This document shows, piece after piece, positions 3 to 30,437 of a stretch of 64,000 nt of DNA. The notes beneath the pieces were generated by a model. That model worked only from the letters and a program-made list of their open reading frames with translations. It searched no databases and was not told where the DNA came from. Source of the DNA: a virus (taxonomy: Duplodnaviria > Caudoviricetes); the IMG/VR virus record IMGVR_UViG_3300005512_002353, one strand, 5' to 3'. Position numbers and translations under genes: made by a program. Numbering within the stretch: the stretch's first letter is position 1; every line of letters starts with the position of its first letter.

Positions 3-293
3 CCTGTTCAACAACAGAAGTTTCTAGATGAATATCGTTTATATTACAATGATGATGGAACTCCTCGTGAATATGCAAGGCAGGAAAAAGAAGGCAACTA
101 CATTGTCATAAGCAAACAGGTGTTTGATGAAAAGAGATACGATGTTTATGTTAAAGATAGAAAACTAATCAATCCTAATCGCATCACACAGTATCGTAAA
201 CTTGTGCCCAGTGACGAAGGAACAGAAACATTAGCAGATGACATTACTATTATAGGTCAAGGACAACGTTGGAAAGTAAAATATTATGACTGA
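3..293 (+). CDS. hypothetical protein, 3' part (runs off window start)
   Basis: Open frame PVQQQKFLDEYRLYY...WKVKYYD* translated by hand; its end overlaps the ATG at 286. Confidence 0.7.
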   Translation, partial: PVQQQKFLDEYRLYYNDDGTPREYARQEKEGNYIVISKQVFDEKRYDVYVKDRKLINPNRITQYRKLVPSDEGTETLADDITIIGQGQRWKVKYYD

Positions 294-1194
294 GATTGAT
301 GTAGCAGATTTAGACTGTGTATACCTAAGTTATGATGAACCTCAAAAGGAAGAGTTTTGGGTTCAGATTAAAAATATGATTCCATGGGCAACTCGTGTTG
401 ACGGTGTCAAAGGGTCAGATGCCGCACACAAAGCCGCGGCCGATGCTAGTAATACAGATAGATTTATCTTAATCGACGGTGACAACATGCCTAGTCCGGA
501 CTTCTTTGATCTAACACTAAAACTCAAAGATGAAGACTATGAACGTGCAACATTCCGTTGGAGAGCTCGTAATCACGTTAATGGTTTAATGTATGGCAAC
601 GGTGGACTTAGTTCATGGACCAAAGACTTTGTTTATAATATGAAGACACATGAAAACTCACAAGGTGATGATGAAACTAATGTAGAGTTCTGCTTTGATC
701 CATTGTATTGGGCCATGCACGATTGTTATTCAACTACATATCCTAATGCCACACCCTTCCAGGCATGGCGAGCAGGATTCCGTGAAGGTGTCAAGATGTG
801 TTTAGATCGAGGACACAAACCAACTATAAATGAATTTAAAGATAGAGCCCATAAACGCAACTTAGATAATCTCAACATATGGCACACAGTAGGTCGTGAT
901 GTTGAGAATGGTATATGGGCCATGGCAGGTGCTAGACAGGGAACACTAATGACCATGTTAACAGATTGGGATCACACTGAAGTCCAATGGTTTGATAACT
1001 TGGAACGGCTATGGAAAGACATGGAATCACAGGATCCAGACGACATAGCAAGAGAGAACGCTAAAGAACTTGGTAGACTAGATCTAGATGTTGTAGAACT
1101 AGACCAGGAACAGAGTAAATTTTTTAAACGACACTATAGATCAAATTGGCGCAACCAAGGACCCATGGTGAGAGAGATAGACATACTAAAATGA
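286..1194 (+). CDS. glycosyltransferase-like protein (GT-A-like)
   Basis: YLSYDEP...RVDGVKG..AHKAAA..FILIDGD (DxD); paralogous to the C-terminal half of 16600..17916 (RVSNVKG..AYQAAA, AWR.AFRE..K). Confidence 0.55.
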   Translation: MTEIDVADLDCVYLSYDEPQKEEFWVQIKNMIPWATRVDGVKGSDAAHKAAADASNTDRFILIDGDNMPSPDFFDLTLKLKDEDYERATFRWRARNHVNGLMYGNGGLSSWTKDFVYNMKTHENSQGDDETNVEFCFDPLYWAMHDCYSTTYPNATPFQAWRAGFREGVKMCLDRGHKPTINEFKDRAHKRNLDNLNIWHTVGRDVENGIWAMAGARQGTLMTMLTDWDHTEVQWFDNLERLWKDMESQDPDDIARENAKELGRLDLDVVELDQEQSKFFKRHYRSNWRNQGPMVREIDILK

Positions 1195-2261
1195 TTGATG
1201 TCAGTAAGTTAGAAGAAAAATATATTTACAAATTAAAGAGCCTGGTAAGAGGTTCGGATATTAGTAATCAAATTCCTTTTTCTTGTAATGCTCCTTGGAA
1301 GAACGTGATAATTGATACTGATTCAAATTGTTTTATCTGTAGATGTGATGGGTGGTTGCCGATACCAGTTGGACAAGTTCAAGATTTTGACTCAATGGAT
1401 GATGTGATTAACAGTCCTGTGGCAAAAGAATTACAGCAAGACATATCGGATAAAAAATTTACACACTGTGCTGTTGACACGTGTGGAATTACGAGCGGTG
1501 ATTTAAATTGGGAGACGATGTGGCTACAAATAAGTTTGGATGAGAGTTGTAACCTTGCATGTCCAAGTTGTAGGCGAGATACCATCACACTTAGCCAAGG
1601 TCCTGAATTTGACAAGAAATCCAAGGACATGGAGAAAATACTACAATGGATGGAAAGATATGAAGAGCCCTTACATGTTACGCTGTCGAGCAACGGTGAT
1701 CCATTGGCCAGCAGAATCATACGTCCGTTGGTTAAAAATTATATACCTAAGGATAATCAGACCTTTGAATTCAAGACCAATGGACTGCTAATGAAGAAAC
1801 ATCTCGCTGATAGCCCTTTATTCGACAACATCACTGTCTTTTCTATCAGTGTGGACGCAGGTTCTAAAGAGGTGTATGAGGATGTTCGTCGCCCAGGCAA
1901 ATGGGAAGCACTAATAGATAATTTAGAATTTTTAAAAAAACACGGTAAGAATAAATTAATCTGGATACAATTTGTAATTCAACAAAAAAACTATAATGAT
2001 CTAGATAATCTAGTAAGTTTGGTCGAGCAATTTGATTGTATGGCTACGATATTCGAGCTCCAAGATTGGGGGACATGGAATTATGAAGATGTTAAATATC
2101 CTGACACCTGGACCATTGCCAATGGAACTTATCTAGAACAAGACGTTTTGAGAAAACAACATCCTAATTATCTTGATGCTATTCAGAATTTAAGAAAAAT
2201 AGCTAACAATAAAAGAATAAGTTTTTCTCCTATAATAAAGAATTTAATAAATGCAAAATAA
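1191..2261 (+). CDS. radical SAM protein with N-terminal twitch-like Cys cluster (#1)
   Basis: CNAPW..CFICRC..CAVDTC, then CNLACPSC; SNGDP replaces GGEP; start moved to ATG 1191, which overlaps the upstream stop. Confidence 0.85.
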   Translation: MIDVSKLEEKYIYKLKSLVRGSDISNQIPFSCNAPWKNVIIDTDSNCFICRCDGWLPIPVGQVQDFDSMDDVINSPVAKELQQDISDKKFTHCAVDTCGITSGDLNWETMWLQISLDESCNLACPSCRRDTITLSQGPEFDKKSKDMEKILQWMERYEEPLHVTLSSNGDPLASRIIRPLVKNYIPKDNQTFEFKTNGLLMKKHLADSPLFDNITVFSISVDAGSKEVYEDVRRPGKWEALIDNLEFLKKHGKNKLIWIQFVIQQKNYNDLDNLVSLVEQFDCMATIFELQDWGTWNYEDVKYPDTWTIANGTYLEQDVLRKQHPNYLDAIQNLRKIANNKRISFSPIIKNLINAK

Positions 2262-3675
2262 AGGCGATGAAGTAAACAAGGACTTTAAGTCAAAGTTCTT
2301 AAGTGATGCAGAAGTCATGAAAGAACAATTAGACACAGTAAGTCCTAGCATGTGTTTGGCTAAATGGAAACAGGTTAGCCTACACCTCACCACGGGCATG
2401 ACTAACTCATGCTACCATCCACCTTTACACCAAATAGATGTTAAACCATTGGAGTTCCATCCCAGTGCCCTACATAACACAGCACAAAAGAAAACTGCAC
2501 GTAAGCAGATGTTAGAAGGGCAACGTCCTGAAGAATGTAGTTACTGTTGGACCATGGAAGACAATGGTAAACTCAGTGACAGACATTATCGCTCAGGTGA
2601 ACCTTGGGCCGCAGAATCATTTAAAGAAATAGTAGATGCATCTTGGGACCAAGATGTTACACCAAGTTATGTAGAAGTTAATTTTAATCACAACTGTAAT
2701 TTAAGATGCTCTTACTGCTCACCACAATACTCTACGGCGTGGGAGAAAGAGTCAAACGAATTGGGTGCGTGGCCAACATCAACGCCACACAATGACCCTA
2801 AATATTTTCAGGGTAGGAGAAAGCCTATACCCTTCCGAGAACACAATCCATACCTAACTGCGTTCTGGGAATGGTGGCCTGATCTTTACCCTGAACTTAA
2901 ACATTTCCGCATGACAGGCGGAGAACCCTTGATGGATAAGAATACCTACAAGGTATTTGATTACGTCCTAGCAAATCCTAAACCAGATCTACACTTAAAT
3001 GTGACTTCAAACTTTTCAGTAGATGAAAAACTATGGACAAAGTATTTAGATTATGTTAAGAAGATATGTGCGGACGACAATGTGGAACATTTCATGCAAT
3101 ATGTGTCAGTGGACGGGTTTGGTGAACAAGCAGAATACATCAGGAATGGCCTGGACTTTAAATTGTTATGGGAACGAGTCAATCAGTTCCTGTTTGAGGT
3201 GCCAGAGCGTTCAAGCATAACATTCATCATAACAATGAACAATTTAAATGTTACATCAGTTGAGAATCTGTTCGCAGGCATACACGGACTTAGGCAAGTG
3301 CATTCAAACACATATCAGCGTGTGTGGTTTGACACACCCATACTGAGAACACCTGAGTGGATGCGTATGGACTTACTACCAGAACCATATGTTGACAAAC
3401 TAGAAAGACTATGGGCTTGGATGGTTAAGTGGCACGAAACAGAAGAGACCCGTTTCAAAGGATTCAAGGACTACGAAATAAAGAGACTTGATAGAGATAT
3501 TGCCTGGATGAGGTCAGGGCAACAATTAGATGTCGAATATAAGAATAAACAGAAAGCAGATTTCTATAGATACTTTAGTGAACATGATCGTAGGAGAGGC
3601 ACTGACTTCTTAAAGACATTTCCAGAGATGTCTGCATGGTGGAAGGAGTGTGAGCAACATGCGAGAACTCAATAA
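2251..3675 (+). CDS. N-twitch radical SAM protein (#2)
   Basis: CLAKW..SCYHP..CSYCW; CNLRCSYC; TGGEP. Confidence 0.9.
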   Translation: MQNKGDEVNKDFKSKFLSDAEVMKEQLDTVSPSMCLAKWKQVSLHLTTGMTNSCYHPPLHQIDVKPLEFHPSALHNTAQKKTARKQMLEGQRPEECSYCWTMEDNGKLSDRHYRSGEPWAAESFKEIVDASWDQDVTPSYVEVNFNHNCNLRCSYCSPQYSTAWEKESNELGAWPTSTPHNDPKYFQGRRKPIPFREHNPYLTAFWEWWPDLYPELKHFRMTGGEPLMDKNTYKVFDYVLANPKPDLHLNVTSNFSVDEKLWTKYLDYVKKICADDNVEHFMQYVSVDGFGEQAEYIRNGLDFKLLWERVNQFLFEVPERSSITFIITMNNLNVTSVENLFAGIHGLRQVHSNTYQRVWFDTPILRTPEWMRMDLLPEPYVDKLERLWAWMVKWHETEETRFKGFKDYEIKRLDRDIAWMRSGQQLDVEYKNKQKADFYRYFSEHDRRRGTDFLKTFPEMSAWWKECEQHARTQ

Positions 3676-4807
3676 ACGATTTTGCATAGCGCCATGGACG
3701 TCAGTAGTCCTAAAGACCACCGGACAGCTAGGTCCTTGCTGTGCTTATCCCACACAGAACAAGATTATTGACATGTCGATCAAGGAATATTACAACAGCG
3801 ATTTTAACAAAGAATTAAAACAAAAGATGTTAAATGGCGAGAAGATCGCTGGCTGTCAAGATTGCTACAGGTCCGACGAGTTATATGGCAGTAGTTTAAG
3901 AACGAAGACCAATGATTTGGCACAAGGAACCATGCAAGATTATGAGAACTTAGATTTTCCGCTTGACCTCGAATTGCAGATCAGCAATATATGTAATATA
4001 AAATGTCTCACATGTCGTCCTGAGGACAGTAGTTCTTTCTTGACGGAAAATAAGATATTGAAGATCAGTGATCATTCAAACGGAGATTTCCAGTTAGGTA
4101 ATGAGAGATTAGATCAGCTGTTTGAACAAATCGGAGAAAACAGTATTAATATGCTAGATCTCCGGGGCGGGGAAAGCATGTTGGTTCCGAACATTAAACA
4201 ACGTTTGAGAGCATTGTCGGATGTCAACGACATCGAGCTACGCATACAGACAAACGGAACCATCTGGGATGATGAATGGGTTGGCATATTTCAAAAGTTT
4301 AGAGAGGTAAATGTAATGATCAGTATTGATGCTTATGGCACAGATAATCATTATGTGAGATTTCCAGCAGTCTGGTCAGATATAGAGAACACGGTTGATA
4401 AGATGAGAGAGGTCACTAATCTGAGGCTTAGTGGAAACTGCACGGTCAGCAATCTGAACCTTCCGGTCCTTCCACGGCTGTTAGATTGGATCATTGAGAA
4501 GGACATAGAGTTTGGTTTTACGGGGTTATCATATCCTAACTACTTTGAAATGACCAATCTACCATTGTCCATCATTGATGATACCAAACAAAAACTTAAC
4601 AAATATCGTAATAGGTTTAATCATGGGTATACAAATGATCAATTTGAATCTATAATATTGAGATTAGAGTCATTATCTGAGTTTAATAAGGAAACATGGA
4701 AGATATTTTGTAGAGTCATATCAATGAGAGATCAACATAGAAAGAACTCCGTATTTGACATCCAGCCAGAATTAAGGGAATATTGGACAAGTGCCGATGA
4801 AACATAA
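3659..4807 (+). CDS. N-twitch radical SAM protein (#3)
   Basis: CIAPW..PCC..CQDC; CNIKCLTC; RGGES; ATG 3659 preferred over GTG 3650. Confidence 0.9.
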   Translation: MRELNKRFCIAPWTSVVLKTTGQLGPCCAYPTQNKIIDMSIKEYYNSDFNKELKQKMLNGEKIAGCQDCYRSDELYGSSLRTKTNDLAQGTMQDYENLDFPLDLELQISNICNIKCLTCRPEDSSSFLTENKILKISDHSNGDFQLGNERLDQLFEQIGENSINMLDLRGGESMLVPNIKQRLRALSDVNDIELRIQTNGTIWDDEWVGIFQKFREVNVMISIDAYGTDNHYVRFPAVWSDIENTVDKMREVTNLRLSGNCTVSNLNLPVLPRLLDWIIEKDIEFGFTGLSYPNYFEMTNLPLSIIDDTKQKLNKYRNRFNHGYTNDQFESIILRLESLSEFNKETWKIFCRVISMRDQHRKNSVFDIQPELREYWTSADET

Positions 4808-6275
4808 GATACTTTGCATAGGTAACAACACACAAGACACTGACGCCAGATGTCAACAAGTTGCTGAGCGATATGATGTGCCGTATCGTGGATTGATCGA
4901 TTCAGCGCCAGAGTCTATCAGACCAGGATGTTATCACTCAAGTTATTATGATCTAGATTATTATGATCTAGAGAATCTTACATGCAGTATGGATCTCGTG
5001 ATATTATTGGATCAAGACATATCCACTTACCCTGATGAGCATGGCTTCCATAAGTCGTTAGATCTGGTCAAGTCACTCTCTGTTGACACGATCATTGAGA
5101 ACACTAACTTGGCCAAACCCCTCGTCTCTGATCTGGTCAACACCAATCCAAGTTTTTGCATTTATCCATTTATACAGAAGATGACCTTTGATGAGAGACT
5201 ACCATGTTGTTTCAGTGTGGGCCACTTGGATTCAAAGACTAGAAACTTCCCCTCGCTGGACCAGTTGAGAGAACAAATGTTGCGTGGGGAAAAGAACGCT
5301 ACTGTGTGTTCCTATTGTTACGAGCAAGAGGAAATGGGTTATGTTAGTGAGCGTATGATCGGCACCAAGGATTGGTCCTTAAAATATAAGATATACACTA
5401 TTGAGGATCTAGAAAGAGCGACAGAGAATTATCCGATGATGTATTCAGCTGAGATCGGAAATACCTGTAACTTAATGTGTAGGACATGCTCGCCAGAAAT
5501 CAGCTCATTGATAGAGAAAGAGAATCGAACAATTAAACTATACGACTACGATCCTAGATTTATACCACCCAATGGACTAAATCAAATTGACATCAATAAG
5601 GCAAGACGGGTCTACATCAGCGGAGGTGAACCAATGGCTGTTGACGACACTGTTGAGTTCTTGGAGAAGCTGGTCAACAACGGCAAGACAGATATCGAAC
5701 TACACTTCAACACGAATGCCACGATACTCACGGAAAGATTTAAGAAATTGATCAAGAACTTCAAGGACGTTAAGTTCACTGTGAGCATAGATTCTTTTGA
5801 TCAAAAGAACACATATATCAGATGGCCCAGCAGTTGGACCAAGATCGTTAAGAATCTAGAATATCTGCTAGAGCAAGGTTATTTCGTCATGGTTAACACT
5901 GTGATGTCGGTGTATAACATATCCGATCTATCAGAACTGTTTATCTGGCTGGATCAATATAAAAACATAGCACTGGACGTCTCTGACGCTAAACCCAGAG
6001 ACGGGATACTGAGTGCATTTATACGACCCGACGCAGAAGTAATCTTGGAAGATCTTACTAAGATAACTAAGTTAGGGCTCTATAATAACAACAAGGACAT
6101 ACGCAGTGCCATAGATGGATACATCGAATATTTCCGAAATCCTAGATCTGATTTGGAAAGACTGCAGGAATTTTTTAATTACAACGATCAACTTGACAAA
6201 GCGAGGGGATCTAAATTAGGGGACTACTTCCCTAAATTGGAACAATGCCGAAAAAGACTAACGAAACAGATTTAG
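4797..6275 (+). CDS. N-twitch radical SAM protein with extra N-terminal domain (#4)
   Basis: KILCIGNN domain; CIYPF..PCC..CSYC; CNLMCRTC; SGGEP. Confidence 0.9.
   Translation: MKHKILCIGNNTQDTDARCQQVAERYDVPYRGLIDSAPESIRPGCYHSSYYDLDYYDLENLTCSMDLVILLDQDISTYPDEHGFHKSLDLVKSLSVDTIIENTNLAKPLVSDLVNTNPSFCIYPFIQKMTFDERLPCCFSVGHLDSKTRNFPSLDQLREQMLRGEKNATVCSYCYEQEEMGYVSERMIGTKDWSLKYKIYTIEDLERATENYPMMYSAEIGNTCNLMCRTCSPEISSLIEKENRTIKLYDYDPRFIPPNGLNQIDINKARRVYISGGEPMAVDDTVEFLEKLVNNGKTDIELHFNTNATILTERFKKLIKNFKDVKFTVSIDSFDQKNTYIRWPSSWTKIVKNLEYLLEQGYFVMVNTVMSVYNISDLSELFIWLDQYKNIALDVSDAKPRDGILSAFIRPDAEVILEDLTKITKLGLYNNNKDIRSAIDGYIEYFRNPRSDLERLQEFFNYNDQLDKARGSKLGDYFPKLEQCRKRLTKQI
4943..4972 (+). repeat. perfect 15-bp tandem duplication (TTATTATGATCTAGA x2), in frame
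   Basis: Read directly; encodes YYDLD-YYDLE. Confidence 0.9.
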
Positions 6276-7591
6276 AATACAAACGCAGAGTGATTGACAT
6301 CAAGAGTGACTCATTCTGTGCGGCCAAATGGTATAACGCTACCATATGGTTGGGGTCAGGCATGACCACAAGTTGCCATCATCCTTTACCACACAAGATC
6401 ACTACCACGGAAGTGGAACGTAATCCCAAGGCACTACACAATACAGAACAAAAGAAAAAAGAACGTGCCATGATGCAGGCAGGTGAGAGACCTAAAGGGT
6501 GTGAATACTGCTGGAAGATCGAGGACATGGGCAAGGATGCCATATCAGATAGGGTTTATAAGACAGTCATATATGAGGACAAGGAGTTAGACGATGCCTA
6601 CAATACTAAATGGACACAAGATGTTGAACTTAGAACTTTGGAAATTGCTTTTGATAGGACTTGCCAGTTGGCTTGTAGTTATTGCAATCCCGCTTTTAGC
6701 AGTAGTTGGGTTAGGGACATTAAGTTTAAAGGCAGTTATACCAACTTGGTTAGTGACGGCCGCAATCATTTTACTCATACTCACGACAGCAGTCAGTTGT
6801 ATACTTATGGTCAGCATAATCCTTACATTGAGGCCTTCTTCAAGTGGTGGGAATCCGATCTACACAAGACACTCCAAGAACTAAGGATAACCGGAGGTGA
6901 GCCACTGATGTCGGGCTACACCTGGCAACTGTTAGAATGGTTCCAGAAGAATAGAGGACAGAGTCAAACACGTCTCGCCATCAATTCAAACTTATCATTT
7001 GACAAGGAAAAGATAGATAGACTGATAGAAGGAGCTAAGGAAGTTGAGCTTGATCTATATACCAGTAATGAGGCATGTAGCACGAAGGCAGAATATATCA
7101 GAGATGGGTTAGATTACCAAGTATGGCAAAACAATGTGGAATACTTGTTAGACAGTCGCAGACTTAGGGGACTACATGTAATGTGCACCATTAATGCACT
7201 ATGTTTAACTACGTTGGATAAGTTTTTGAAACAGATAATGAAATGGAAAGCAGAGTATGGCAAGGACAGCATTAACTTTACCTTAAACATCCTACGCTTT
7301 CCTAGTTTCCAATCACCGTTAGTGTTACCAAAAGACATAAGACTTGGTTATGCCAATAGATTAAAATTATTCCAGGTTGGATATAAGGAATCAATGCACG
7401 AGTTTGAGAACAATCAATTAACCAGACTGATAGAATACCTGGATGTGGTGGAAGTTCCACACTCAGAAGCATTCGAGATGCCCAAGTTATTAAATGATTT
7501 TAAACAATTTTATACACAGTATGATGAACGCAGAGGAAAAGACTTTATAAAAACATTTCCGGATTTAAAGGATTGGTATAATGGCCTATAA
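6245..7591 (+). CDS. N-twitch radical SAM protein (#5)
   Basis: CAAKW..SCHHP..CEYCW; CQLACSYC; TGGEP. Confidence 0.9.
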   Translation: MPKKTNETDLEYKRRVIDIKSDSFCAAKWYNATIWLGSGMTTSCHHPLPHKITTTEVERNPKALHNTEQKKKERAMMQAGERPKGCEYCWKIEDMGKDAISDRVYKTVIYEDKELDDAYNTKWTQDVELRTLEIAFDRTCQLACSYCNPAFSSSWVRDIKFKGSYTNLVSDGRNHFTHTHDSSQLYTYGQHNPYIEAFFKWWESDLHKTLQELRITGGEPLMSGYTWQLLEWFQKNRGQSQTRLAINSNLSFDKEKIDRLIEGAKEVELDLYTSNEACSTKAEYIRDGLDYQVWQNNVEYLLDSRRLRGLHVMCTINALCLTTLDKFLKQIMKWKAEYGKDSINFTLNILRFPSFQSPLVLPKDIRLGYANRLKLFQVGYKESMHEFENNQLTRLIEYLDVVEVPHSEAFEMPKLLNDFKQFYTQYDERRGKDFIKTFPDLKDWYNGL

Positions 7592-8846
7592 TTATAATTC
7601 ATCAGAACCTGTAAAAATAAGTTTGGATCAATTAACTGAACGTGAAAAGTTTTTGTTAACAGAGTCTAAAACGTTTTGCATGTATCCCTGGATACATCTG
7701 CACAGTTATCCAACAGGTGATGCTTATCCTTGTTGTCATGCCGAGATGCCTGAGAAACTAGGCAATTGTCAACAGCAAAGTATGAAAGAGATATGGTCTA
7801 ATGATAAGACTATTAAGTTACGTGATGACATGTTAAACGAAAGAGAAAATCCTGCCTGCACTAGATGCTATGAACAAGAGAAGTCAGGATTCTTTTCAGG
7901 TCGTAAGTCAGCCAATAAACATCACGGACATCATATTAAAAAAGGTGTAGAACTAGATCCTCCTTTTGAAATGTCATATTGGGACATACGTTTTAGTAAT
8001 CTATGTAATCTAAGTTGTCGCAGTTGTGGTCATATCTTTAGTAGTTCGTGGTATCAGGATCAAGTTAAACTTGCTGGCGAAGGTTGGGGTAAAAGTAATA
8101 AGCCTCTCTTCTGGGCAGGCCGTCATGAAACAGATATGCTAGAACAACTAATGGAACACCTTGACTATGTAGAGCAAATATACTTTGCAGGTGGCGAACC
8201 ATTAATGATGGATGAACACTATGCTATCTTAGAAGAACTAGAAAAGCGTAAGAAGTTTGATGTTAGGCTGATCTACAACACAAACTTTACTAAAACAAAA
8301 CTAAAAGATCGTTATGTGTTTGACTACTGGCGCAAATTTGATTCAGTGGCAGTGGGTGCTAGTTTAGATGCTATGGGACCACGTGCTGAATATATTAGAG
8401 CAGGAACAGACTGGGCAGAGGTAGAACAGAATAGACAGTTAATGATGGAACAATGTCCTCGTGTTGACTTTTATATTAGTCCTACGCTGTCAATACAAAA
8501 CGCCCTGCACTTGCCAGACTTCCATCGTGATTGGGTGGAGAAAGGTTACATACGACCACAGGACTTAAACGTTAACATATTACAAGACCCTGCGTGGTTA
8601 CGCATAGATATCGCACCTGAATCGTATAAAGAAAAGATACGTAGTAAGTATCAACAACATTTAGAATGGTTACGTCCACTAGACAAATTAAACAGAGCAA
8701 CAGTGGGATTTGAAAGTGCATTAAACTTTTTAGAAACAGATAACACTAAGTTACTTCCTAAGTTCTGGGAGCGTATGACAGAATTAGATCGCATTAGAAA
8801 CGAAAATATATTAATAGCAATACCTGAATTAAATGAAATTGCCTAA
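7581..8846 (+). CDS. N-twitch radical SAM protein (#6)
   Basis: CMYPW..PCC..CTRC; CNLSCRSC; AGGEP. Confidence 0.9.
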   Translation: MAYNYNSSEPVKISLDQLTEREKFLLTESKTFCMYPWIHLHSYPTGDAYPCCHAEMPEKLGNCQQQSMKEIWSNDKTIKLRDDMLNERENPACTRCYEQEKSGFFSGRKSANKHHGHHIKKGVELDPPFEMSYWDIRFSNLCNLSCRSCGHIFSSSWYQDQVKLAGEGWGKSNKPLFWAGRHETDMLEQLMEHLDYVEQIYFAGGEPLMMDEHYAILEELEKRKKFDVRLIYNTNFTKTKLKDRYVFDYWRKFDSVAVGASLDAMGPRAEYIRAGTDWAEVEQNRQLMMEQCPRVDFYISPTLSIQNALHLPDFHRDWVEKGYIRPQDLNVNILQDPAWLRIDIAPESYKEKIRSKYQQHLEWLRPLDKLNRATVGFESALNFLETDNTKLLPKFWERMTELDRIRNENILIAIPELNEIA

Positions 8847-10038
8847 CAAGACATTTTGCGTGTTACCCTGGGTCAGTGTTGAGACAAGTCCCATTGGCAC
8901 CATGCGACCATGTTGCCTGGCGGAAGATGAGCTGATCAATGATCAGGGTGAGAAATTACGCATAGGTATAGACACTGTGGAACAAGCACAGGAATCCATG
9001 CGTGGTCTGCGTAGTCAGTTTCTAAACGGAGAAAAGCCAGAGACCTGTAAGAAGTGTTGGGCAGTTGAAGCATCAGGTGGCAAATCAAAACGAGAATATA
9101 CCTTAGAACGTTTAGAGTCAATGATTGATGATACTGAATGGACACAAGATGCAAAACCATTGATGTTTATAGACTTTAAACTGGGCAATATCTGTAACTT
9201 AAAATGTCGTATATGTGGTAGTTGGAGTTCTAGCAGTTATGCCACAGAAGAACTACAAGAGTTTCCAAAGGAACAACAAAAGTCTAGTTTCCCTTATAAG
9301 ATGATTGAACAAGGCCGTTGGCCAAGGGAAGCAGATAGTTTTTGGCAGGAGATGTCAGACAACGTGGACAACATACGTTACCTAGAGTTCACTGGTGGCG
9401 AACCTTTCATGATCAAAGAACACTTTGACTTCCTAAAAACACTAGTGGACAAAGGTGTTGCTAAGAATATCGAAATACATTATAATACCAACGGCACACA
9501 GTATCCAGAGAAGAACTTGGCAGTATGGCAGGAATTTAAGTTAGTTGAGATAGCATTTTCAATAGATGACGTTAGTGAACGTTTTGAATATCAACGTAAG
9601 AATGCGTCATGGAAAGAAGTAAATGAGAACATACAGAAATTTAAACAACTCAAACAGGAATTTGGCAACATAGTCCTACAGTGTTGTTCCACTGTAAATG
9701 TTTTTAATGTAATGTATCTAGAAAAACTAAGTTACTGGATTGATCAACAGGATTTTGATTTTGTCTACTGGAATATCTTGCATGAGATATGGTATAATTC
9801 TGTTGCTAATCTACATCCGTTTGCTAAACTCAAAGCACAGGCAAGACTAAGTTTTGTGCATAACAATAATAGACATTACAACGATTTCCAGCGTATAATA
9901 AAGTTTATGGAACAGGGCCAGGGAAACGGCACAGAAGAACTAATCAAACAAGTCACAAGATTCGATCGACTGCGTGGGGAATCATTATGGTCCCATCATC
10001 CAGAACTAGCAGAGGCAATAGGTTATGAACGAACCTAA
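8833..10038 (+). CDS. N-twitch radical SAM protein (#7)
   Basis: CVLPW..PCC..CKKC; CNLKCRIC; TGGEP. Confidence 0.9.
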   Translation: MKLPNKTFCVLPWVSVETSPIGTMRPCCLAEDELINDQGEKLRIGIDTVEQAQESMRGLRSQFLNGEKPETCKKCWAVEASGGKSKREYTLERLESMIDDTEWTQDAKPLMFIDFKLGNICNLKCRICGSWSSSSYATEELQEFPKEQQKSSFPYKMIEQGRWPREADSFWQEMSDNVDNIRYLEFTGGEPFMIKEHFDFLKTLVDKGVAKNIEIHYNTNGTQYPEKNLAVWQEFKLVEIAFSIDDVSERFEYQRKNASWKEVNENIQKFKQLKQEFGNIVLQCCSTVNVFNVMYLEKLSYWIDQQDFDFVYWNILHEIWYNSVANLHPFAKLKAQARLSFVHNNNRHYNDFQRIIKFMEQGQGNGTEELIKQVTRFDRLRGESLWSHHPELAEAIGYERT

Positions 10039-11332
10039 CAACAGACCTGCTACCTTGTGTATGGCTCCCTGGACTCATACTTACCTAAGCCCACAGACTG
10101 AGCGTAGGATGTGCTGTGCATCAAGAGAACCTGCACAGAACTTTGAACAGTATATAGATACCAAGGCAGGCACAGGCAAGTATATCCCCCTCACACTAGA
10201 TGAGCATTGGAACAGTGAGCACATGAAGTCAGTGCGTCGACGCATGATGGCGGGCGAAACCCTGCCGGAATGTGACGTGTGTAATAGCAAGTTATTGAAT
10301 ACTGACGTTTACCGAACATATTTTGATCACCTATTCTCCAGTAAATACTATAGTAAGATTTGGGACACAACGGACGAGACAGGTTACACCACAATGAAGC
10401 CTGTTAGTTGGGATTACAGGTTCACCAATTTATGTAATTTCAAATGCCGTATGTGTGGGGATATGTTATCCAGTGCTTGGGAATCAGAACAACGTAAGCA
10501 TGGGATGATAGATTTTAAAAATCCCAAAAATAATTGGATGGTGCCTGCAGTGCGTGATGAAATATCTAAGTTTCAAGACACGCAAATAGAGCAGGAGTTC
10601 GCAGACGCAGTCGAAGACCATAGAGTCGAAGAGATATACTGGGTAGGCGGAGAACCGTTGATGTATGAGCAACACTGGCGATACATGCAACGCATCATTG
10701 AATTAGGAGATGGACCAAATGTTTATGCTCGATACAATACCAACCTCAGCCGTGTTGATTATAGAGGCTGTAATCTTTATACTGATATCCTTAGCAACCT
10801 ACGCGATTGGCAGATATGTGCGTCAATCGACGGAACAGGAGCGATTGGAGAATATATTAGGACGGGTCTCAACTACAATTCTTGGCTTGAGAATCTCGAT
10901 CAGGGAATTGAGAACGCAGTTCATAGAAGACAGATTCGACTGGACTTCACGCTCACACTCCCTGGATTATTCGAAGTTGAAAATATCCAAGAACTTGCGA
11001 GAGAAAAAGGAGTAGACATCCTGGCCAAAGTGGTGTTTGGGTTTACCCCAGACATCATCATGAGCCCACTCGCACTTCCAAGATCCATATTACATCCATG
11101 GCTCGATGAACTAATACCTCGCAGTCAAGGAGCCATGCGTGATATATTACTGCAACTAAAAACAAGACCTACATTTGAAGAACAGTTTCCTGACACATGG
11201 CAACAGGCTCTGATTGACGGTAAGAATCGTATGCTACAGTTAGAGGTCATAAGAAAAGATACATATACCATGCGTGACATATTAAGTAATAGAACAGACG
11301 CATTAGAATGGTGGGATGACATTGGAAGTTAA
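10025..11332 (+). CDS. N-twitch radical SAM protein (#8)
   Basis: CMAPW..MCC..CDVC; CNFKCRMC; VGGEP. Confidence 0.9.
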   Translation: MNEPNNRPATLCMAPWTHTYLSPQTERRMCCASREPAQNFEQYIDTKAGTGKYIPLTLDEHWNSEHMKSVRRRMMAGETLPECDVCNSKLLNTDVYRTYFDHLFSSKYYSKIWDTTDETGYTTMKPVSWDYRFTNLCNFKCRMCGDMLSSAWESEQRKHGMIDFKNPKNNWMVPAVRDEISKFQDTQIEQEFADAVEDHRVEEIYWVGGEPLMYEQHWRYMQRIIELGDGPNVYARYNTNLSRVDYRGCNLYTDILSNLRDWQICASIDGTGAIGEYIRTGLNYNSWLENLDQGIENAVHRRQIRLDFTLTLPGLFEVENIQELAREKGVDILAKVVFGFTPDIIMSPLALPRSILHPWLDELIPRSQGAMRDILLQLKTRPTFEEQFPDTWQQALIDGKNRMLQLEVIRKDTYTMRDILSNRTDALEWWDDIGS

Positions 11333-12419
11333 AGTTACTCTACGTGATCCATTGGATAAACAAGATACTTTAGATTACTATATAGTTTCTAACGACACAC
11401 AGTTAGCCAAGGACTGGATTCAGGCATTAAAAGAAATACTATCAAGTAATTTAACTTTACAAAAAGATTTTTGCTTTTTAGGTTTTCCTAATTCAGCAAG
11501 AACAATAGAATATATTTGTAACGAATTAAATCATGCTGTAAAAACTATTAACAGTTATGACTTTACTCAGCACGGGTTAAATCCTTATATCATTGAAGAA
11601 TATTTTACACCCGATTCGGTAAGATTTAGTGAAGACTTATATCCAGTAGGTCCCACTGGCAACGATGCAGTTGATAGTCCAAATGATCTTGGATTAAGAA
11701 TAAAACATTCTATAATGAATCAACTACACAATCATTTTGAGGTATTAGAAGGCACAGTAGAACACCCAAGCCCATACGGACAGAATGCACCTGCTGATGT
11801 TAGACGAGCAATTGGACAATTGAACTATAACTGTCATGAATTAGAAAGTCTGATACTAAGCCAACGAAAATACAAAGTAACACCAGAGTGGGTTAGGCCA
11901 AGTCAGATAACAACGTTTGAATCTTGTAAACGATATGATTTAACAGATGAACATAGACAAGGGTTTATTGATAATAATTATGATAGACAGTTTGGCCATG
12001 TCTACATGCACTGGACACAGATAGGCAAAACTTTATTTGAAGTGTTCCGTGATGAAGGCGCACCAGACTTAGATGAAGCAACCTGTGAAGCAATAACACA
12101 TCTTAGATATTACTCTGGCGAATTTGATGTGGAATGGGCAAAGTCTGTTACCAAAGACAGTAATTATAGTTGGCACAACGATGAGCAGTTGCGTTTTGAA
12201 AATTGGTTATTGAAACATGGATTGGATCCTCGAGACCCTAAACTTAGTTTAGGCTATCTACACTTGGGTAAAGTAGACCTATTACGTAGTTTTGGCACAG
12301 AGGATATGTTTGAAGTTTGGAATCAGGTAGGATCACACTTAGATATATACAGTATCGAAGTTGATGGTATTAAACAAGTATTTGATTATTGTTGGAGTGA
12401 TAAAAATGAAATGGATTAA
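11316..12419 (+). CDS. hypothetical protein (367 aa, His-containing helices)
   Basis: Long ORF overlapping both neighbours; NQLHNHFE and NYNCHELE motifs; no family recognised. Confidence 0.75.
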   Translation: MTLEVKVTLRDPLDKQDTLDYYIVSNDTQLAKDWIQALKEILSSNLTLQKDFCFLGFPNSARTIEYICNELNHAVKTINSYDFTQHGLNPYIIEEYFTPDSVRFSEDLYPVGPTGNDAVDSPNDLGLRIKHSIMNQLHNHFEVLEGTVEHPSPYGQNAPADVRRAIGQLNYNCHELESLILSQRKYKVTPEWVRPSQITTFESCKRYDLTDEHRQGFIDNNYDRQFGHVYMHWTQIGKTLFEVFRDEGAPDLDEATCEAITHLRYYSGEFDVEWAKSVTKDSNYSWHNDEQLRFENWLLKHGLDPRDPKLSLGYLHLGKVDLLRSFGTEDMFEVWNQVGSHLDIYSIEVDGIKQVFDYCWSDKNEMD

Positions 12420-12507
12420 AAATTTAATTAATAAGATTAAATTAGAGATACGGTATCGAAAAAAATTAAAAGAACTCAAAAAGCGTGATCCGTTTATATA
12501 TAAATGA
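12406..12507 (+). CDS. small basic protein (33 aa) MKWIKNLINKIKLEIRYRKKLKELKKRDPFIYK
   Basis: Not in ORF track; fills the gap exactly, with ATGA overlap to the next gene. Confidence 0.7.
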   Translation: MKWIKNLINKIKLEIRYRKKLKELKKRDPFIYK

Positions 12508-12686
12508 GTAACAATATAGAAAGTCCTTGTATAGGAGTTTGCTCAGTAAATCCCAACACAGGGTATTGTCATGGGTGTTCACGGACACAAGAAGAAATGG
12601 ACAGTTGGTCGACAATGTCTGATAAAGAAAAAATAAAATTAATTAACGAATTAGAAAAAAGACAAGATGAGTTATTTGGGGATTAG
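12504..12686 (+). CDS. DUF1289-family small Cys-rich (putative Fe-S) protein
   Basis: SPCIGVC...CHGCSRT..E...W pattern. Confidence 0.8.
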   Translation: MSNNIESPCIGVCSVNPNTGYCHGCSRTQEEMDSWSTMSDKEKIKLINELEKRQDELFGD

Positions 12687-14160
12687 TGCAGGCTTCCATG
12701 ACGCTAGTATAAGTGTTGTAGACTACGACGGTTCGATTAAATTTGCTGGACATGCAGAACGTTATTCAAAACAAAAGAATGATCGTAGCCTAAACACTGA
12801 TATATTTTATGATGCCTACAACTACACGAATAAGATTACTCATATTGCCTACTACGAAAAACCTCTACTAAAACAGTTACGTAATTGGCGTTCAGGTATG
12901 AAGTTTGATTGGCGCCGTGTAACAACAATGCAGGCCATTGATCGAGAAATTCCTCCACGTGCTAGAAGACTAATAGGCACAGGCATACCTTTTTCAAGTT
13001 ATCATCATCACAAAAGTCATGCGGCCGCTGGCTTTCAAACATCACCATATGATGATGCTACAGTTGTAGTCGTTGATGCTATAGGTGAGTTTGATACTAT
13101 ATCAATTTGGTCAGCACACTATGACCGCAAAGGCTGTGCCCAATATACGAAACTATGGAGTCAAAAATATCCACACTCGGTAGGATTGTTTTATTCAGCA
13201 ATGACTCAACGTGCAGGACTTAAACCAAATGAGGATGAATATATCTTAATGGGCATGGCCGCATACGCAAGACCAGACTACAACATGTATGCTGAATTTC
13301 TTAGAGATAGAGACGACATAGAATTCTACGATAATCTACACGTGGGCTGTGAAGACTACAGACCAGAAATGACAGAGTTTCAAATTGCGGCTTCGGCTCA
13401 ATACACCGTAGAACAATGTGTTTATAGGATAATGGAGAAAGCACGTAAACTTGGACAGAGTAAAAATTTAGTTTACATGGGGGGAGTTGCCCTCAACTGC
13501 TCAGCAAACGAGCAACTAGGTAACTATTTTGAAAATATCTGGATCATGCCCAATCCAGGTGATGCAGGTTCAAGTCTAGGAGCCGCGGCGTTAGCATACG
13601 GTAAACAAGTAGAATGGTCACATCCATACTTAGGCACTAACATAGAAGGATCATATCCTGTTAATCAGCTACTAGATGAATTGCTTGGTAATAAGATAGT
13701 TGGAGTGGCCAGTGGACGTGCAGAGTTTGGACCTAGAGCCTTAGGCAATAGATCATTACTAGCAGATCCTAGAGGGCCTGAGATAAAGGACAAAGTAAAC
13801 GAAATCAAACGTAGGCAGAAGTTCCGTCCATTTGCTCCTGTAATAATGGAGGAGTATGTTGATCAATATTTTATGATGCCAAAAGGATTTCCAACATCAC
13901 CATATATGCAGACTACTGCTACTTGTAAGAAACCAAGTGAATTTCCTGCAGTCATACATCAAGATGGGACCAGCCGTGTGCAGACTGTGAGTAAGGATTG
14001 TGGTAGCGGCATTAGACAACTATTAGAAAAATGGTTTGTGTTAACAGGCTGTCCTATGTTATTAAATACTAGCCTTAATATCAAAGGTGAGCCGATGGTT
14101 AATGATAGAGTAGATGCTGATCGTTTTGAAAAATATTATGGCGTTAAAGTAATATCATGA
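12667..14160 (+). CDS. carbamoyltransferase (NodU/CmcH/TobZ family)
   Basis: GFHDAS, ERYSK.K, HHKSHAA, DAIGE, GGVALN, GDAGSSLGAA, EFGPRALGNRS, FRPFAP, DGTSRVQT, LLNTSLN. Confidence 0.95.
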   Translation: MSYLGISAGFHDASISVVDYDGSIKFAGHAERYSKQKNDRSLNTDIFYDAYNYTNKITHIAYYEKPLLKQLRNWRSGMKFDWRRVTTMQAIDREIPPRARRLIGTGIPFSSYHHHKSHAAAGFQTSPYDDATVVVVDAIGEFDTISIWSAHYDRKGCAQYTKLWSQKYPHSVGLFYSAMTQRAGLKPNEDEYILMGMAAYARPDYNMYAEFLRDRDDIEFYDNLHVGCEDYRPEMTEFQIAASAQYTVEQCVYRIMEKARKLGQSKNLVYMGGVALNCSANEQLGNYFENIWIMPNPGDAGSSLGAAALAYGKQVEWSHPYLGTNIEGSYPVNQLLDELLGNKIVGVASGRAEFGPRALGNRSLLADPRGPEIKDKVNEIKRRQKFRPFAPVIMEEYVDQYFMMPKGFPTSPYMQTTATCKKPSEFPAVIHQDGTSRVQTVSKDCGSGIRQLLEKWFVLTGCPMLLNTSLNIKGEPMVNDRVDADRFEKYYGVKVIS

Positions 14161-14834: not shown

Positions 14835-14843
14835 GGTGGCATC

Positions 14844-15479: not shown

Positions 15480-16616
15480 TTCTTCTCGTTTATTTCTTTT
15501 AAACCAAGCCTGATTGTGTAAAATGATCGAAGTCATTTCTATATGCTGTTTATGTAGATCTTCTAAACTTGTGTCTGCTATTCGTTTAACGGTATCCCAA
15601 ATAGCTAGCCAACGAAAACGAATATCCTGTTCCTGATCATAACTTTCATCTATCCAGGGACTAAATGTTTTATATCCTTGTTCTTGGAGGTATTGTAAAC
15701 TATTTGTTGTGCCCAGTATAACAAAGGGTTGGCCATATTTGATTGGCTTAAATGTTTTTTCCGTAAGGAACACGCCGCCGGTAGCATCAAGATAAGTTTC
15801 CATAACTACGTTCCAGTAACTATCAGTGAACAAATAATCCACACTCAGAGAATGATCATTGTGGTTGTCTGTGTTAAGGTTATCTGCACTCAGAGGTAGC
15901 ACAGATTCAAACTTAGGTTGAACGAAATCCATGTTTCTTTTATATCCCAGACACCATAAAAATTTACCATTGGTAACATTATAATCTTCTCTAGTGTCCT
16001 TATTAATAACATTACCATAACTCACATAAGCATCTTTTGTTAAATCGTTGCGCCATAGATTGTAAACAAATTCTTTCCTATACTGTTTGTGAACTCTATT
16101 TAAACAAGTGTATTTTTTAGTCTTGCGTTCAAATATACTTGGTTCGGGTATAACCGTGTTTTGTATTTCAAACAAGTATTCGCTTTCGCAGACATAGGCC
16201 ATGCCATCTATTTCATTAGCTTTGGTGTTACCACTGACGAAAAATATTGATTCTCTGTCTATATCGTGTGCTTCACATAGGTCACGTAGTCTCTCGTCTA
16301 TGGCGAAAGGATCGTCGGGTTCACCATAGGTAAACAATAAACGTAATTGTTTGTGTCGAATTTTGTCAAGCACCCTGGGATTCAAGTAAGTAAAGTAGTC
16401 ACAGTTGAAATCAAAGAAGTATAAGTTGACGTTATACCAAGCTGAATGATCAGCATCCTCGATATCAACTATGTCATAATTGATACCGTGATTATCTAAG
16501 AACTTGTGTAGAGTCATGGGCATCACATAGGGAGCACCATATGCTTGACTTTCGTGTTCTTTTAAGTTAAAATAATTATTATTTTCTATACAAAATTTAA
16601 TGTTTGACATATTCAT
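15444..16616 (-). CDS. putative glycosyltransferase (GT10/fucosyltransferase-like C-terminus)
   Basis: CLNR..K.YR, VVMET..FLTEKTFKPI..GQPFVILG resembles the GT10 TEK motif; start probably 16616 or 16610. Confidence 0.5.
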   Translation of the reverse strand: MNMSNIKFCIENNNYFNLKEHESQAYGAPYVMPMTLHKFLDNHGINYDIVDIEDADHSAWYNVNLYFFDFNCDYFTYLNPRVLDKIRHKQLRLLFTYGEPDDPFAIDERLRDLCEAHDIDRESIFFVSGNTKANEIDGMAYVCESEYLFEIQNTVIPEPSIFERKTKKYTCLNRVHKQYRKEFVYNLWRNDLTKDAYVSYGNVINKDTREDYNVTNGKFLWCLGYKRNMDFVQPKFESVLPLSADNLNTDNHNDHSLSVDYLFTDSYWNVVMETYLDATGGVFLTEKTFKPIKYGQPFVILGTTNSLQYLQEQGYKTFSPWIDESYDQEQDIRFRWLAIWDTVKRIADTSLEDLHKQHIEMTSIILHNQAWFKRNKREELIKAIEKISGH

Positions 16617-17916
16617 AATGGACATGGGTGGCCATAACGGTAACCTACAGTATTTAATAAAACGCTTTCCGCATGCCAAGGTTTTGCGTTGGACTACGCA
16701 TCTTAATTGTATGCGTAAGGCCGCAAAACAATCAAGGACTAGATCATTTTGGTTAATTGCTAGTTGCTGTGTCTATGATGATTTTGATTTCTTGTGGGAG
16801 CCAGTTCCATGGGAACAATATCAAATACACTGTTGGGCCAGTAAAGATCAAAAACTAGGTGATACATTCTTAGTGCCTACTAGTAAGTTTTTGGAACAAG
16901 ATCCAGAACGCATAGACCTATATCAGGATGTAAATTGGCACGCGGATGGTGTTATTAGAGTGGATCCAGAAGTCGTAAGATACGACGGAGATGACATAAT
17001 AGAGGCATCTAAGACGCACATAAACACGCCTTACGCCGTAGTTTGTAAACATTGGACACACGATTACCAAGAACCTCAATTATGGCAAGATCCTTGCATA
17101 GTTAACTTAAATGCTAGTAAATCAGCATCAATAGTGCCTAGGACTGCTACTAGTTATATAGATCAACAGATGTATGACTATCCACATCTATCATCAGACA
17201 TTATATTACCTGATGAACCTTTGGATGTGGTGTTTATTGAAAATGGTGAGGTGAATGCAGAAGAAAACTTTGAACATTTACAGCAATTATTACAAGAAAA
17301 ACCCAATAATTTGCACCGTGTAAGCAACGTAAAGGGTCGTGTCGCCGCTTATCAGGCCGCGGCTAAGGTCAGTAGCACCCCGTGGTTCTTTTCAGTGTTT
17401 GCTAAGTTAAAAATAGATGAGAATTTTGATTTTTCATGGCAACCAGATTACTGGCAAGGACCAAAACATTACATATTCCATGCCCGTAATCCCATAAATG
17501 ATCTAGAATATGGACACATGGCCATGATAGCATACAATAAGAATTTGGTATTGTTAAACACTGCTCGAGGATTAGACTTTACCCTTGATCAAGCACACGA
17601 AGTGGTGCCAATATTGAGTGGTGTTGCTAACTATGCAGATGATCCACAAATGGCTTGGCGTAGTGCTTTCCGTGAAGTGTTAAAACTTAAATGGATGTTG
17701 GAACAACGTGCTGACGTTGAAGCAGAATATAGACTCAAGATGTGGCTAATGAAAGGTGAGGGTGAAAAGGGTCAGTGGTCAATGCAAGGTGCTGTTGATG
17801 CTGTTGAGTATTATGAAGAAACCAACGGTGACTTTGATAAGTTGAAACTGAGTTATGACTGGGCGTGGCTTAATGATTACTACAACGACCGGTATGTAGT
17901 ATCACATAGTCACTGA
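16600..17916 (+). CDS. two-domain glycosyltransferase-like protein
   Basis: Internally repeated halves (DFDFLWEP / NFDFSWQP); C-terminal half paralogous to 286..1194. Confidence 0.55.
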   Translation: MFDIFIMDMGGHNGNLQYLIKRFPHAKVLRWTTHLNCMRKAAKQSRTRSFWLIASCCVYDDFDFLWEPVPWEQYQIHCWASKDQKLGDTFLVPTSKFLEQDPERIDLYQDVNWHADGVIRVDPEVVRYDGDDIIEASKTHINTPYAVVCKHWTHDYQEPQLWQDPCIVNLNASKSASIVPRTATSYIDQQMYDYPHLSSDIILPDEPLDVVFIENGEVNAEENFEHLQQLLQEKPNNLHRVSNVKGRVAAYQAAAKVSSTPWFFSVFAKLKIDENFDFSWQPDYWQGPKHYIFHARNPINDLEYGHMAMIAYNKNLVLLNTARGLDFTLDQAHEVVPILSGVANYADDPQMAWRSAFREVLKLKWMLEQRADVEAEYRLKMWLMKGEGEKGQWSMQGAVDAVEYYEETNGDFDKLKLSYDWAWLNDYYNDRYVVSHSH

Positions 17917-18976
17917 TATATTCAACTTCTGTGTCAGTCAGTTCAGGATAGAAAGGTAAACTCAGAACTCTCCTACTTAGGCTACTGGCCACACTGAGCA
18001 ATCCAGGATTCTCATAGTGTTGATATGGTTCCATTTCGTGTAGAGCTCTCTCATAATGTATCTTACATTCAATGCCGTCGTTGTATAGTTTTTCTTTTAC
18101 GGTGTTCCTGCCGTTGATGTCGATCACAAACTTTTGGAATGCGTGATAATTAAAATACTCTTTCCTGATCACTGGACGTATTTCTTCTACGTGTTCAAAT
18201 GTGTCCATCCACCAAGCGGCGATCTTACGCCTGCGATCCTGCCATTCGTCAATGTATTTTAGTTTGACCAACAGTTGGGCGGCATCTGCTTCACTCATGC
18301 GTGAGTTTGTTCCAACTATGGCCCAATCAGGTTTACCGTTGTCTCTATACTTGCGGAACCAATTGGCGGCGTCTGGGTCATGAGTAACAATAGCACCACC
18401 ATTGCCATAGTTGCCTAGATTCTTCATTGGATCAAATGATATCGCTTTCATGACAGGGTTGCTACCGAATGGTTCACTTAGCCAATGCTGGGCGGCATCC
18501 TCTACCAGTATCTTCCAATGTGTCTTGCTACCATTGTCCTTGAACAGTTCTTCCCACACAGGTGAACCATACAGCCCAACGGTGCAGATAGCATGATAAC
18601 TGTCGTAGTCGGGCAGTTTCTCCATGTCCATAACACCATAACTGTCAGTGTCAACTATGATGGGTTCCCATCCTGCCTTGACCCAACTGTTGATGGTCGC
18701 AGGATATGTCATCGCAGGCAAACAAACACGTGGAGTCACATCCTCGCCAATACCAAAACTATATCTATGATACTCAGCGATCATCTGCAGGGCCTGTGTG
18801 CCTGAGTGGACGCATATGACGTGTTCCATGCCTATGCGTTTGGCCACTTGTTCTTCCAATGCTTGAGTGTAGGGACCGTTCATGTGTATGCCTGAACGAT
18901 ATACCATGTCGGTGGCGTCCAGGATCTCATCTCTGATTGAGTCGTATTGTTTTCTAAGATTTATAAACGGTATCAT
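17870..18976 (-). CDS. DegT/DnrJ/EryC1/StrS PLP-dependent sugar aminotransferase
   Basis: MIPFINL, SGTQAL, EDAAQ, SFDPMKNLGNYGNGG, LSLPFYP. Confidence 0.93.
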   Translation of the reverse strand: MIPFINLRKQYDSIRDEILDATDMVYRSGIHMNGPYTQALEEQVAKRIGMEHVICVHSGTQALQMIAEYHRYSFGIGEDVTPRVCLPAMTYPATINSWVKAGWEPIIVDTDSYGVMDMEKLPDYDSYHAICTVGLYGSPVWEELFKDNGSKTHWKILVEDAAQHWLSEPFGSNPVMKAISFDPMKNLGNYGNGGAIVTHDPDAANWFRKYRDNGKPDWAIVGTNSRMSEADAAQLLVKLKYIDEWQDRRRKIAAWWMDTFEHVEEIRPVIRKEYFNYHAFQKFVIDINGRNTVKEKLYNDGIECKIHYERALHEMEPYQHYENPGLLSVASSLSRRVLSLPFYPELTDTEVEYISDYVILHTGRCSNH

Positions 18977-30408: not shown

Positions 30409-30437
30409 ATTATATGATCTTACGAGACGGTTGTCAA
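30409..30437 (-). promoter_or_regulatory. sigma70-type promoter TTGACA-N17-TATAAT with GATC next to -10
   Basis: ttgaca accgtctcgtaaGATCa tataat. Confidence 0.88.

Follow-up and report, generated by a model that had tools for sequence, protein, structure and literature searches.

Tandem radical SAM genes with an N-terminal twitch domain in an uncultured giant phage form an expanded version of a conserved operon module

Why would a phage carry eight radical S-adenosylmethionine (SAM) genes in a row? The question is raised by a stretch of 64,000 nucleotides from the viral record IMGVR_UViG_3300005512_002353 (Caudoviricetes), referred to here as the window. An initial annotation of its sequence described eight consecutive, overlapping radical SAM genes (r1 to r8) at positions 1191-11332, two further copies (r9 and r10), and a cysteine cluster ahead of the SAM domain, and proposed a multi-step phage pathway of radical chemistry. 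We find that these eight genes represent an expanded version of an operon module that is conserved among phages and composed of a glycosyltransferase-like gene (ORF0), five radical SAM genes and an orphan gene (X367). Together with adjoining sugar genes, the array probably edits a coat of sugar or protein on the virion.

The arrangement of the genes is as described. All eight lie on the + strand, neighbors overlap by 11-31 nt, and they are part of an uninterrupted chain of genes at 286-15479 (+) in which start and stop codons overlap almost throughout; the ATG of r1 at 1191 overlaps the stop codon of the upstream gene as ATGA. Both further copies are present on the - strand (Table 1). A hidden Markov model of the ten proteins recovers exactly ten copies in the window, and their summed coding length is indeed ~13 kb. 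In an alignment of the ten diverged paralogs, all three cysteines of CxxxCxxC are invariant, and an FC...(C)C...CxxC cluster precedes this motif in every copy. This N-terminal cluster has four conserved cysteine positions, two of them invariant and two present in at least 90% of the copies. The reported GGEP-like motif can be recognized as GG(E/D)P in the alignment but is degenerate in r1 (NGDP) and r3 (GGES).

The ten proteins belong to a family that has already been catalogued. Nine of them (r2-r10) exceed the curated cutoff of 170 bits for NF033640 (N_Twi_rSAM in NCBIfam, 'twitch domain-containing radical SAM protein') across almost the entire 398-position model. r1 reaches 55.6 bits over its C-terminal part only and is a divergent relative. 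PF04055 matches all of r1-r8, several of them (r2, r5 and r6) slightly below the gathering score, and the core fold is the partial TIM barrel of radical SAM enzymes. Matches to PF13186 (SPASM) are N-terminal, within residues 12-113 (46 bits in r6, 22 in r3, 21 in r8 and 19 in r1). There are just four conserved cysteine positions (five cysteines in r6), as in a twitch domain, versus approximately seven in a full SPASM domain, and the second cysteine block of a full SPASM domain (7-8 Cys, with a CxxCxxxxxCxxxC block) is absent from all ten copies. Matches to viperin-like, QueE, MoaA and BlsE equivalogs are all 15-45 bits, where the cutoffs are 180-450, and scans of NCBIfam and Pfam found no RRE-type domain. 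We conclude that the ten copies are intact, selected members of a catalogued family that joins a permuted twitch domain to a radical SAM core. The initial annotation took the family to have no assigned function, and this agrees with what we find: its NCBIfam name gives none, and full-text searches on the family and its architecture turned up no characterization. Membership in a characterized housekeeping family had been named as a ground for doubt; NF033640 is not such a family.

Is the array the product of recent duplication? We compared it with 83 viral loci, 80 from an IMG/VR scan with r6 (contigs up to 347 kb) and three from protein look-ups. Each of the 83 has 3-8 NF033640-type members within 10 kb either side of its r6-type gene. 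Best-hit mapping gives a core order of ORF0, r2, r5, r6, r7, r8 and X367 (ortholog counts are in Table 1), with median identities of 53-70% for the core radical SAM orthologs. The core is usually followed either by a micro-protein and a carbamoyltransferase or else by u438, an aminotransferase and a dehydratase. In a quick maximum-likelihood tree (IQ-TREE, SH-aLRT support only), r2, r5, r6, r7 and r8 each form a separate orthogroup with support of 99-100. The synteny check across related phage contigs returns these five orthogroups in a fixed order at 83 viral loci. Ratios of nonsynonymous to synonymous substitution (dN/dS) against nearest relatives are 0.04-0.10 for the five core radical SAM genes, ORF0 and the carbamoyltransferase, 0.08-0.18 for X367, and 0.18 for r1. 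Because the values for the core radical SAM genes and r1 are this low, a dN/dS near 1, also raised as a ground for doubt, does not apply. The array is not a recent duplication; its paralogs are old, correspond one-to-one, and are under strong purifying selection in a sizeable clade of large uncultured phages. Locus L084, a 148-kb contig binned as a Haliscomenobacter metagenome-assembled genome, has the complete module (ORF0, five radical SAM genes, X367 and the micro-protein; r6 at 67% identity); either this contig is phage DNA that was binned wrongly, or it gives a clue to the host lineage.

The remaining copies have different histories. No ortholog of r3 or r4 was found among the 83 loci fetched; r3 sits on a long orphan branch, and r4 and r9 are sisters (SH-aLRT 99). 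r10, some 40 kb from the array in this genome, groups with r2 and r5 as a subtype with an SC(H/Y)HP-type motif, and its orthologs (53-54% identity) lie inside the array, between r6 and r7, in loci L008-L010, L027, L033 and L073. Because the orthologs are inside the array in these phages, the position of r10 here looks like a rearrangement, and r10 looks like an accessory array member displaced in this genome. The proposal of a multi-step pathway is therefore only partly sustained. Several non-redundant steps are supported by the five fixed-order orthogroups and the natural fusions of r6 with r7 described below, but the ten may not form a single pathway, given the lack of r3 and r4 orthologs in the fetched loci, the sister relationship of r9 to r4, and the displacement of r10.

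r4 and r9 share an N-terminal extension of ~115 aa (4791-5150, + strand, and 31583-31942, - strand) that contains KILCxGNN...LLDQ, is 34% identical between the two, and matches no family. A flavodoxin-like reading of this extension was dropped, as Pfam lends it no support. In other phages, an unrelated N-terminal extension of ~130-145 aa (…DISNFF…) is found on many of the r6 orthologs.

Table 1. The ten radical SAM genes, their core partners and neighboring features in the window.
Feature	Position	Strand	Evidence and conservation
ORF0, GT-A-like, 302 aa, first core gene	286..1194	+	IDGDN (DxD) motif; 75/83 loci; 41% identical to RsoM2USA gp350
r1, divergent radical SAM, accessory	1146/1191..2261	+	PF04055 51 bits; weak SPASM match aa 47-113; orthologs in 16 loci
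r2, core, subtype A (SC(H/Y)HP motif)	2251..3675	+	NF033640 324 bits; ortholog in 83/83 loci; dN/dS 0.05-0.06
r3, N-twitch radical SAM	3650..4807	+	NF033640 273 bits; best hit in only one locus, 27% identity
r4, N-twitch radical SAM with extra ~115-aa N-terminal domain	4791..6275	+	NF033640 236 bits, aa 120-485
r5, core, subtype A	6245..7591	+	NF033640 298 bits; 83/83 loci; dN/dS 0.08-0.09
r6, core, top family-model match	7581..8846	+	NF033640 386 bits; SPASM 46 bits; 83/83 loci; AlphaFold2 predicted local distance difference test score (pLDDT) 95.2
r7, core	8833..10038	+	NF033640 335 bits; 78 loci; fused behind r6-type domains in natural proteins
r8, core	10025..11332	+	NF033640 282 bits; 72 loci, median 70% identity
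X367, orphan, 367 aa, last core gene, always after r8	11316..12419	+	65 loci
Micro-protein, 33 aa, basic, ends ...RKRDPFIYK	12406..12507	+	Tail near-invariant in >50 loci
DUF1289 protein, 60 aa, four Cys	12504..12686	+	PF06945, 66.5 bits
NodU/CmcH-type O-carbamoyltransferase	12667..14160	+	Carbam_trans_N, Carbam_trans_C; phrog_1601 4.8e-96; 49 loci
u438, C-terminal part distant paralog of ORF0 GT-A-like domain	16600..17916	+	hmmsearch E 9e-10; hhalign probability 99.6%
DegT/DnrJ/EryC1-type sugar aminotransferase	17870..18976	-	PF01041 188 bits; PseC-like/DesI-like NCBIfam matches below cutoffs
NDP-sugar 4,6-dehydratase/epimerase (SDR)	18954..19910	-	PF01370, PF16363; TIGR01181 2.3e-33, below cutoff
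r9, dispersed, r4-type N-terminal extension	30434..31942	-	NF033640 221 bits, aa 120-496
Fatty-acid-desaturase-family gene	31984..32919	+	PF00487, 67 bits
GTP cyclohydrolase I	46354..47088		
199-aa open reading frame	47104..47703	-	Covers only a central stretch (162-221 of 360) of the DegT-type aminotransferase profile
r10, dispersed, subtype A	50995..52254	-	NF033640 226 bits

The core begins with ORF0 and ends with X367. The N-terminal ~130 residues of ORF0 match GT-A glycosyltransferases and nucleotidyltransferases (E 1e-3 to 4e-2, with low template-modeling (TM) scores). The best Foldseek match of the AlphaFold2 model of ORF0 (pLDDT 81.5) in the PDB is A64R, the capsid glycosyltransferase of PBCV-1 (E 1e-3; Foldseek probability 0.99-1.0, lower for other matches), and the DGD within IDGDN shows little or no variation. 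ORF0 matches no Pfam family, and a profile search of PDB sequences gave nothing credible. X367 has 3,843 homologous clusters, none of them named or with a Pfam domain, and no match in the PDB, Pfam, NCBIfam, PHROG or the Atlas.

Several smaller genes follow the core. The last ~21 residues of the micro-protein are almost invariant across more than 50 loci whose neighboring enzymes share only 35-70% identity. This protein co-occurs with the carbamoyltransferase, and at least 10 loci keep the whole radical SAM core and X367 without either of them. Because the two co-vary while the radical SAM core persists without either, the micro-protein is, judging from gene content, a partner of the carbamoyltransferase rather than of the radical SAM core. 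For the same reason we rejected it, with its DPFIYK end, as a precursor substrate of the radical SAM enzymes. For a link of the micro-protein to DUF5989/SxtK there was no Pfam match at E<=5. The DUF1289 protein, which sits between the micro-protein and the carbamoyltransferase, occurs in few related loci by a motif scan, and a weak SGNH-like protein is also encoded downstream of the array.

The closest relative is L032, whose ORF0 and r2 proteins are 93-96% identical to those here. Its region ahead of ORF0, which lies beyond our window, encodes a 450-aa tail-fiber-like protein with a Peptidase_G2 intramolecular-chaperone domain and the products of four other conserved genes. Two of these four, adjacent orphans of ~260 aa upstream of ORF0 (L032 4133-4903 and 4890-5681), are mutual paralogs (hhalign 98.7%). 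Because this pair is kept in 71-72 loci and in Ralstonia phage RsoM2USA (L165 3776-4645 and 4642-5490; gp353 and gp352), the conserved block reaches upstream of the window. RsoM2USA has a colinear block of gp353, gp352, gp350 (the ORF0 ortholog, 41%), gp349 and gp348, in which gp349 is a full-length ortholog of r2 (35% identical) and gp348 is a second GT-A-like paralog. This block is on the same strand as, and a few genes after, genes for a baseplate wedge, a 2,541-aa structural protein, the tail sheath and a virion protein, the last confirmed by mass spectrometry (PMC8504454). No homolog of X367 or of the carbamoyltransferase was found in RsoM2USA. Vibrio phages of the K566/6E35.1a group have three or four very distant relatives; tblastn with r6, r2, ORF0 and X367 found only RsoM2USA and this Vibrio group, and none for X367. 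The module is thus physically linked to tail or tail-fiber genes in two distant jumbo-phage lineages.

The phage origin of the window, which had been presumed, is borne out by its T4-type DNA polymerase, which is 52% identical to that of the Sinorhizobium jumbo phage Phosso and 46% to that of Atu_ph07. Other genes in the window encode an exonuclease, a protease, ThyX and ClpP. Megablast of the array against GenBank phages gave no match. Promoter and terminator scans of the window were at background level only, and the T4-type late-promoter word TATAAATA was found 0 times at 1-64000 (4.5 expected). Beside r9, and divergent from it, is a fatty-acid-desaturase-family gene. A short reading frame that matches only part of DegT-type aminotransferases adjoins the GTP cyclohydrolase I gene and may be a truncated or split gene.

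How far does the family extend beyond these phages? Among 50%-identity representatives, r6 finds 10,147 relatives at E<=0.001, of which 1,273 reach E<=1e-30; of 8,000 candidates scored in 90%-identity clusters, 7,692 reach E<=0.001. The Atlas clusters nearest r6 are 93-100% viral. Relatives encoded by cells, 30-40% identical and mostly single-copy, come from Bacteroidota, Bdellovibrionota, Elusimicrobia, Alphaproteobacteria, Planctomycetota and Bacillota. Homologs in Reichenbachiella, Hoeflea and Paenibacillus have heterogeneous contexts with no common partner. The Paenibacillus sp. homolog (L110, 9551-17775) lies among genes for an acyl carrier protein-like protein, a short-chain dehydrogenase/reductase (SDR), two ketosynthases, an AMP-ligase and a GT2 enzyme, a setting that looks like acyl or glycolipid synthesis and is unlike the phage context. 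Natural fusions of an r6-type protein followed by an r7-type protein, in the same order as the genes here, occur in at least five separate clusters, each half with its own CxxxCxxC; single-chain examples are the metagenomic proteins P0123, P0127, P0135, P0145 and P0260. Because the paralogs are old, one-to-one, under purifying selection, overlapped at their start and stop codons, and fused in nature in the case of r6 and r7, we conclude that the core radical SAM enzymes have several non-redundant roles and probably act in part as a complex.

What is the substrate? The radical SAM genes are surrounded by genes for two GT-A-like proteins, a carbamoyltransferase, a sugar 4,6-dehydratase and an aminotransferase, with tail-fiber-like genes upstream, and therefore we tentatively favor, at a little short of an even chance, radical tailoring of a virion glycan or glycoconjugate, most likely on the host-recognition apparatus. 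On the basis of motifs and fold, each enzyme would bind two [4Fe-4S] clusters, one at CxxxCxxC that cleaves SAM and an auxiliary one in its N-terminal, circularly permuted twitch domain. A 5'-deoxyadenosyl radical could then abstract hydrogen from a sugar or glycoconjugate built by the adjoining GT-A-like proteins, NDP-sugar dehydratase, aminotransferase and carbamoyltransferase; candidate steps are oxidation, epimerization, deoxygenation and C-C bond formation. The product would most likely be displayed on the tail-fiber apparatus, whose genes are just upstream on the same strand, and the extra copies r1, r3, r4, r9 and r10 could be accessory cassettes that diversify it.

The main rival, less probable but serious, is that the enzymes modify a virion protein directly (a tail fiber or another structural protein), as do anSME (formylglycine), sactisynthases and radical peptide epimerases. 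Each paralog would have its own site or residue type, and the GT-A-like proteins would act separately. Consistent with this idea, the nearest structures and sequence profiles include the protein and peptide maturases anSME, SkfB, CteB, SuiB and TigE; the module follows tail-fiber-like genes here and tail and baseplate genes in RsoM2USA; and the radical SAM core is retained at loci that lack the sugar-nucleotide genes and the carbamoyltransferase. Cellular members of the family include fusions to TPR and Sel1 repeats, whose usual role is to bind proteins, and a TPR protein is encoded near the Hoeflea homolog. The structure of r6 does not decide between a sugar and a protein. Its AlphaFold2 model (pLDDT 95.2) has a hairpin (47-49/61-62) followed by helices (68-85), its comparison with solved structures by Foldseek and VIA gives TM scores of 0.3-0.4 with none close, and the rankings do not separate sugar-acting from protein-acting relatives.

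Other substrates are further from the evidence. The module might be an auxiliary metabolic set that remodels host surface polysaccharide (lipopolysaccharide (LPS) or capsule) during infection, serving release or superinfection exclusion and not the virion itself. Its genes for sugar nucleotides and carbamoyl transfer do resemble phage 'LPS' or moron genes (phrog_1601 is filed as moron/auxiliary metabolic gene), and cellular homologs occur in many phyla; however, the same-strand linkage to tail-fiber or tail genes in two distant phage lineages, the almost entirely viral origin of the close relatives of r6, and the detection of no flippase, polymerase, lipid-carrier or membrane protein in the cluster make this improbable. 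A viperin- or QueE-like role in modifying nucleic acid (phage DNA bases, tRNA) or nucleotides seems very improbable to us. It draws on weak profile matches to viperin, QueE and NrdG and on the position of r10 next to DNA polymerase and a 7-deazaguanine gene set, but those matches are far under their cutoffs and cover the generic core only, r10 appears to have been moved there from the array, and no nucleic-acid enzyme is among the conserved core neighbors. Least probable of all is a peptide-derived small molecule or cofactor (compare PQQ and mycofactocin) made from the 33-aa ...DPFIYK peptide. Although this near-invariant peptide has a C-terminal aromatic motif and shares an operon with radical SAM, glycosyltransferase-like and small Fe-S proteins, it tracks the carbamoyltransferase and is missing from loci with a full core.

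Returning to tailoring of the virion surface, we speculate that the module could be a dedicated maturation machine, in which a radical SAM complex that includes an r6-r7 heteromer installs distinct radical modifications on a tail-fiber glycoprotein or glycan while accessory cassettes diversify the surface chemistry. In this full form the proposal is doubtful. If true, the accessory cassettes would alter host range or resistance to host enzymes, and the machine would represent a new class of virion post-assembly chemistry and provide the first reactions for NF033640.

The findings bear on both radical SAM enzymology and phage surface biology. NF033640 is very large, with thousands of close metagenomic relatives and no known reaction, and here a fixed set of five of its enzymes, under strong purifying selection, is found in hundreds of large uncultured phages, adjoining genes that decide host recognition. 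One solved reaction would annotate thousands of genes and might uncover radical reactions on the glycans or proteins of phage surfaces.

The array shares features with several known systems. With NF033640 itself it shares the order of an N-terminal twitch followed by the radical SAM core, and the model aligns along the whole length of nine of its ten proteins. It departs from the family in r1 and in the extra domain of r4 and r9, and, whereas NF033640 genes in the bacterial loci fetched are mostly single-copy, here they form a five-to-eight-gene phage array. BtrN, a twitch enzyme of an aminoglycoside pathway, has one auxiliary cluster on a C...C...CxxC module and a similar neighborhood of sugar genes. 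Its cysteine spacing is C-x18-C-x43-CxxC, which the spacing in the N-terminal domain here resembles, and that domain aligns weakly to the twitch region of BtrN (residues 184-258, E 0.013). In contrast to the permuted, N-terminal position here, BtrN has its twitch at the C terminus; over their full lengths the proteins show no significant similarity, and the top structural matches of the r6 model do not include BtrN. The protein maturases anSME, SkfB and CteB (TM 0.36-0.41) likewise have a C-terminal auxiliary domain (SPASM in anSME and CteB, twitch in SkfB), and unlike their systems no substrate peptide or recognition element was found at the phage locus. BlsE, the cytosylglucuronate decarboxylase, is 16% identical and falls within ~1 Z unit of the protein maturases; the NCBIfam BlsE model scores r7 far below its cutoff.

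Multi-copy radical SAM genes have been reported before in large uncultured myophages. Two surveys of marine T4-like phages found many radical SAM genes: one counted 12 in one genome (Nishimura 2017, PMC5332604), and in pelagimyophages they are variable cassettes in the host-recognition cluster beside tail fibers (Zaragoza-Solas 2020, PMC7029224). Neither report defined the family, the five-gene core or a function. Since the family is already catalogued and phage radical SAM cassettes are in print, the novelty claimed in the initial annotation was overstated; the array is an enlarged member of a catalogued yet uncharacterized kind and is not categorically new. Among cultured phages, RsoM2USA has one radical SAM gene rather than five to eight, and the genes of its block are all annotated as hypothetical. 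However, its gp350-gp349 pair corresponds to ORF0-r2, with a second GT-A-like paralog next in line, and colinearity extends upstream to gp353 and gp352. This ortholog pair, together with the distant relatives in cultured Vibrio jumbo phages, makes the question of what these enzymes do testable at the bench.

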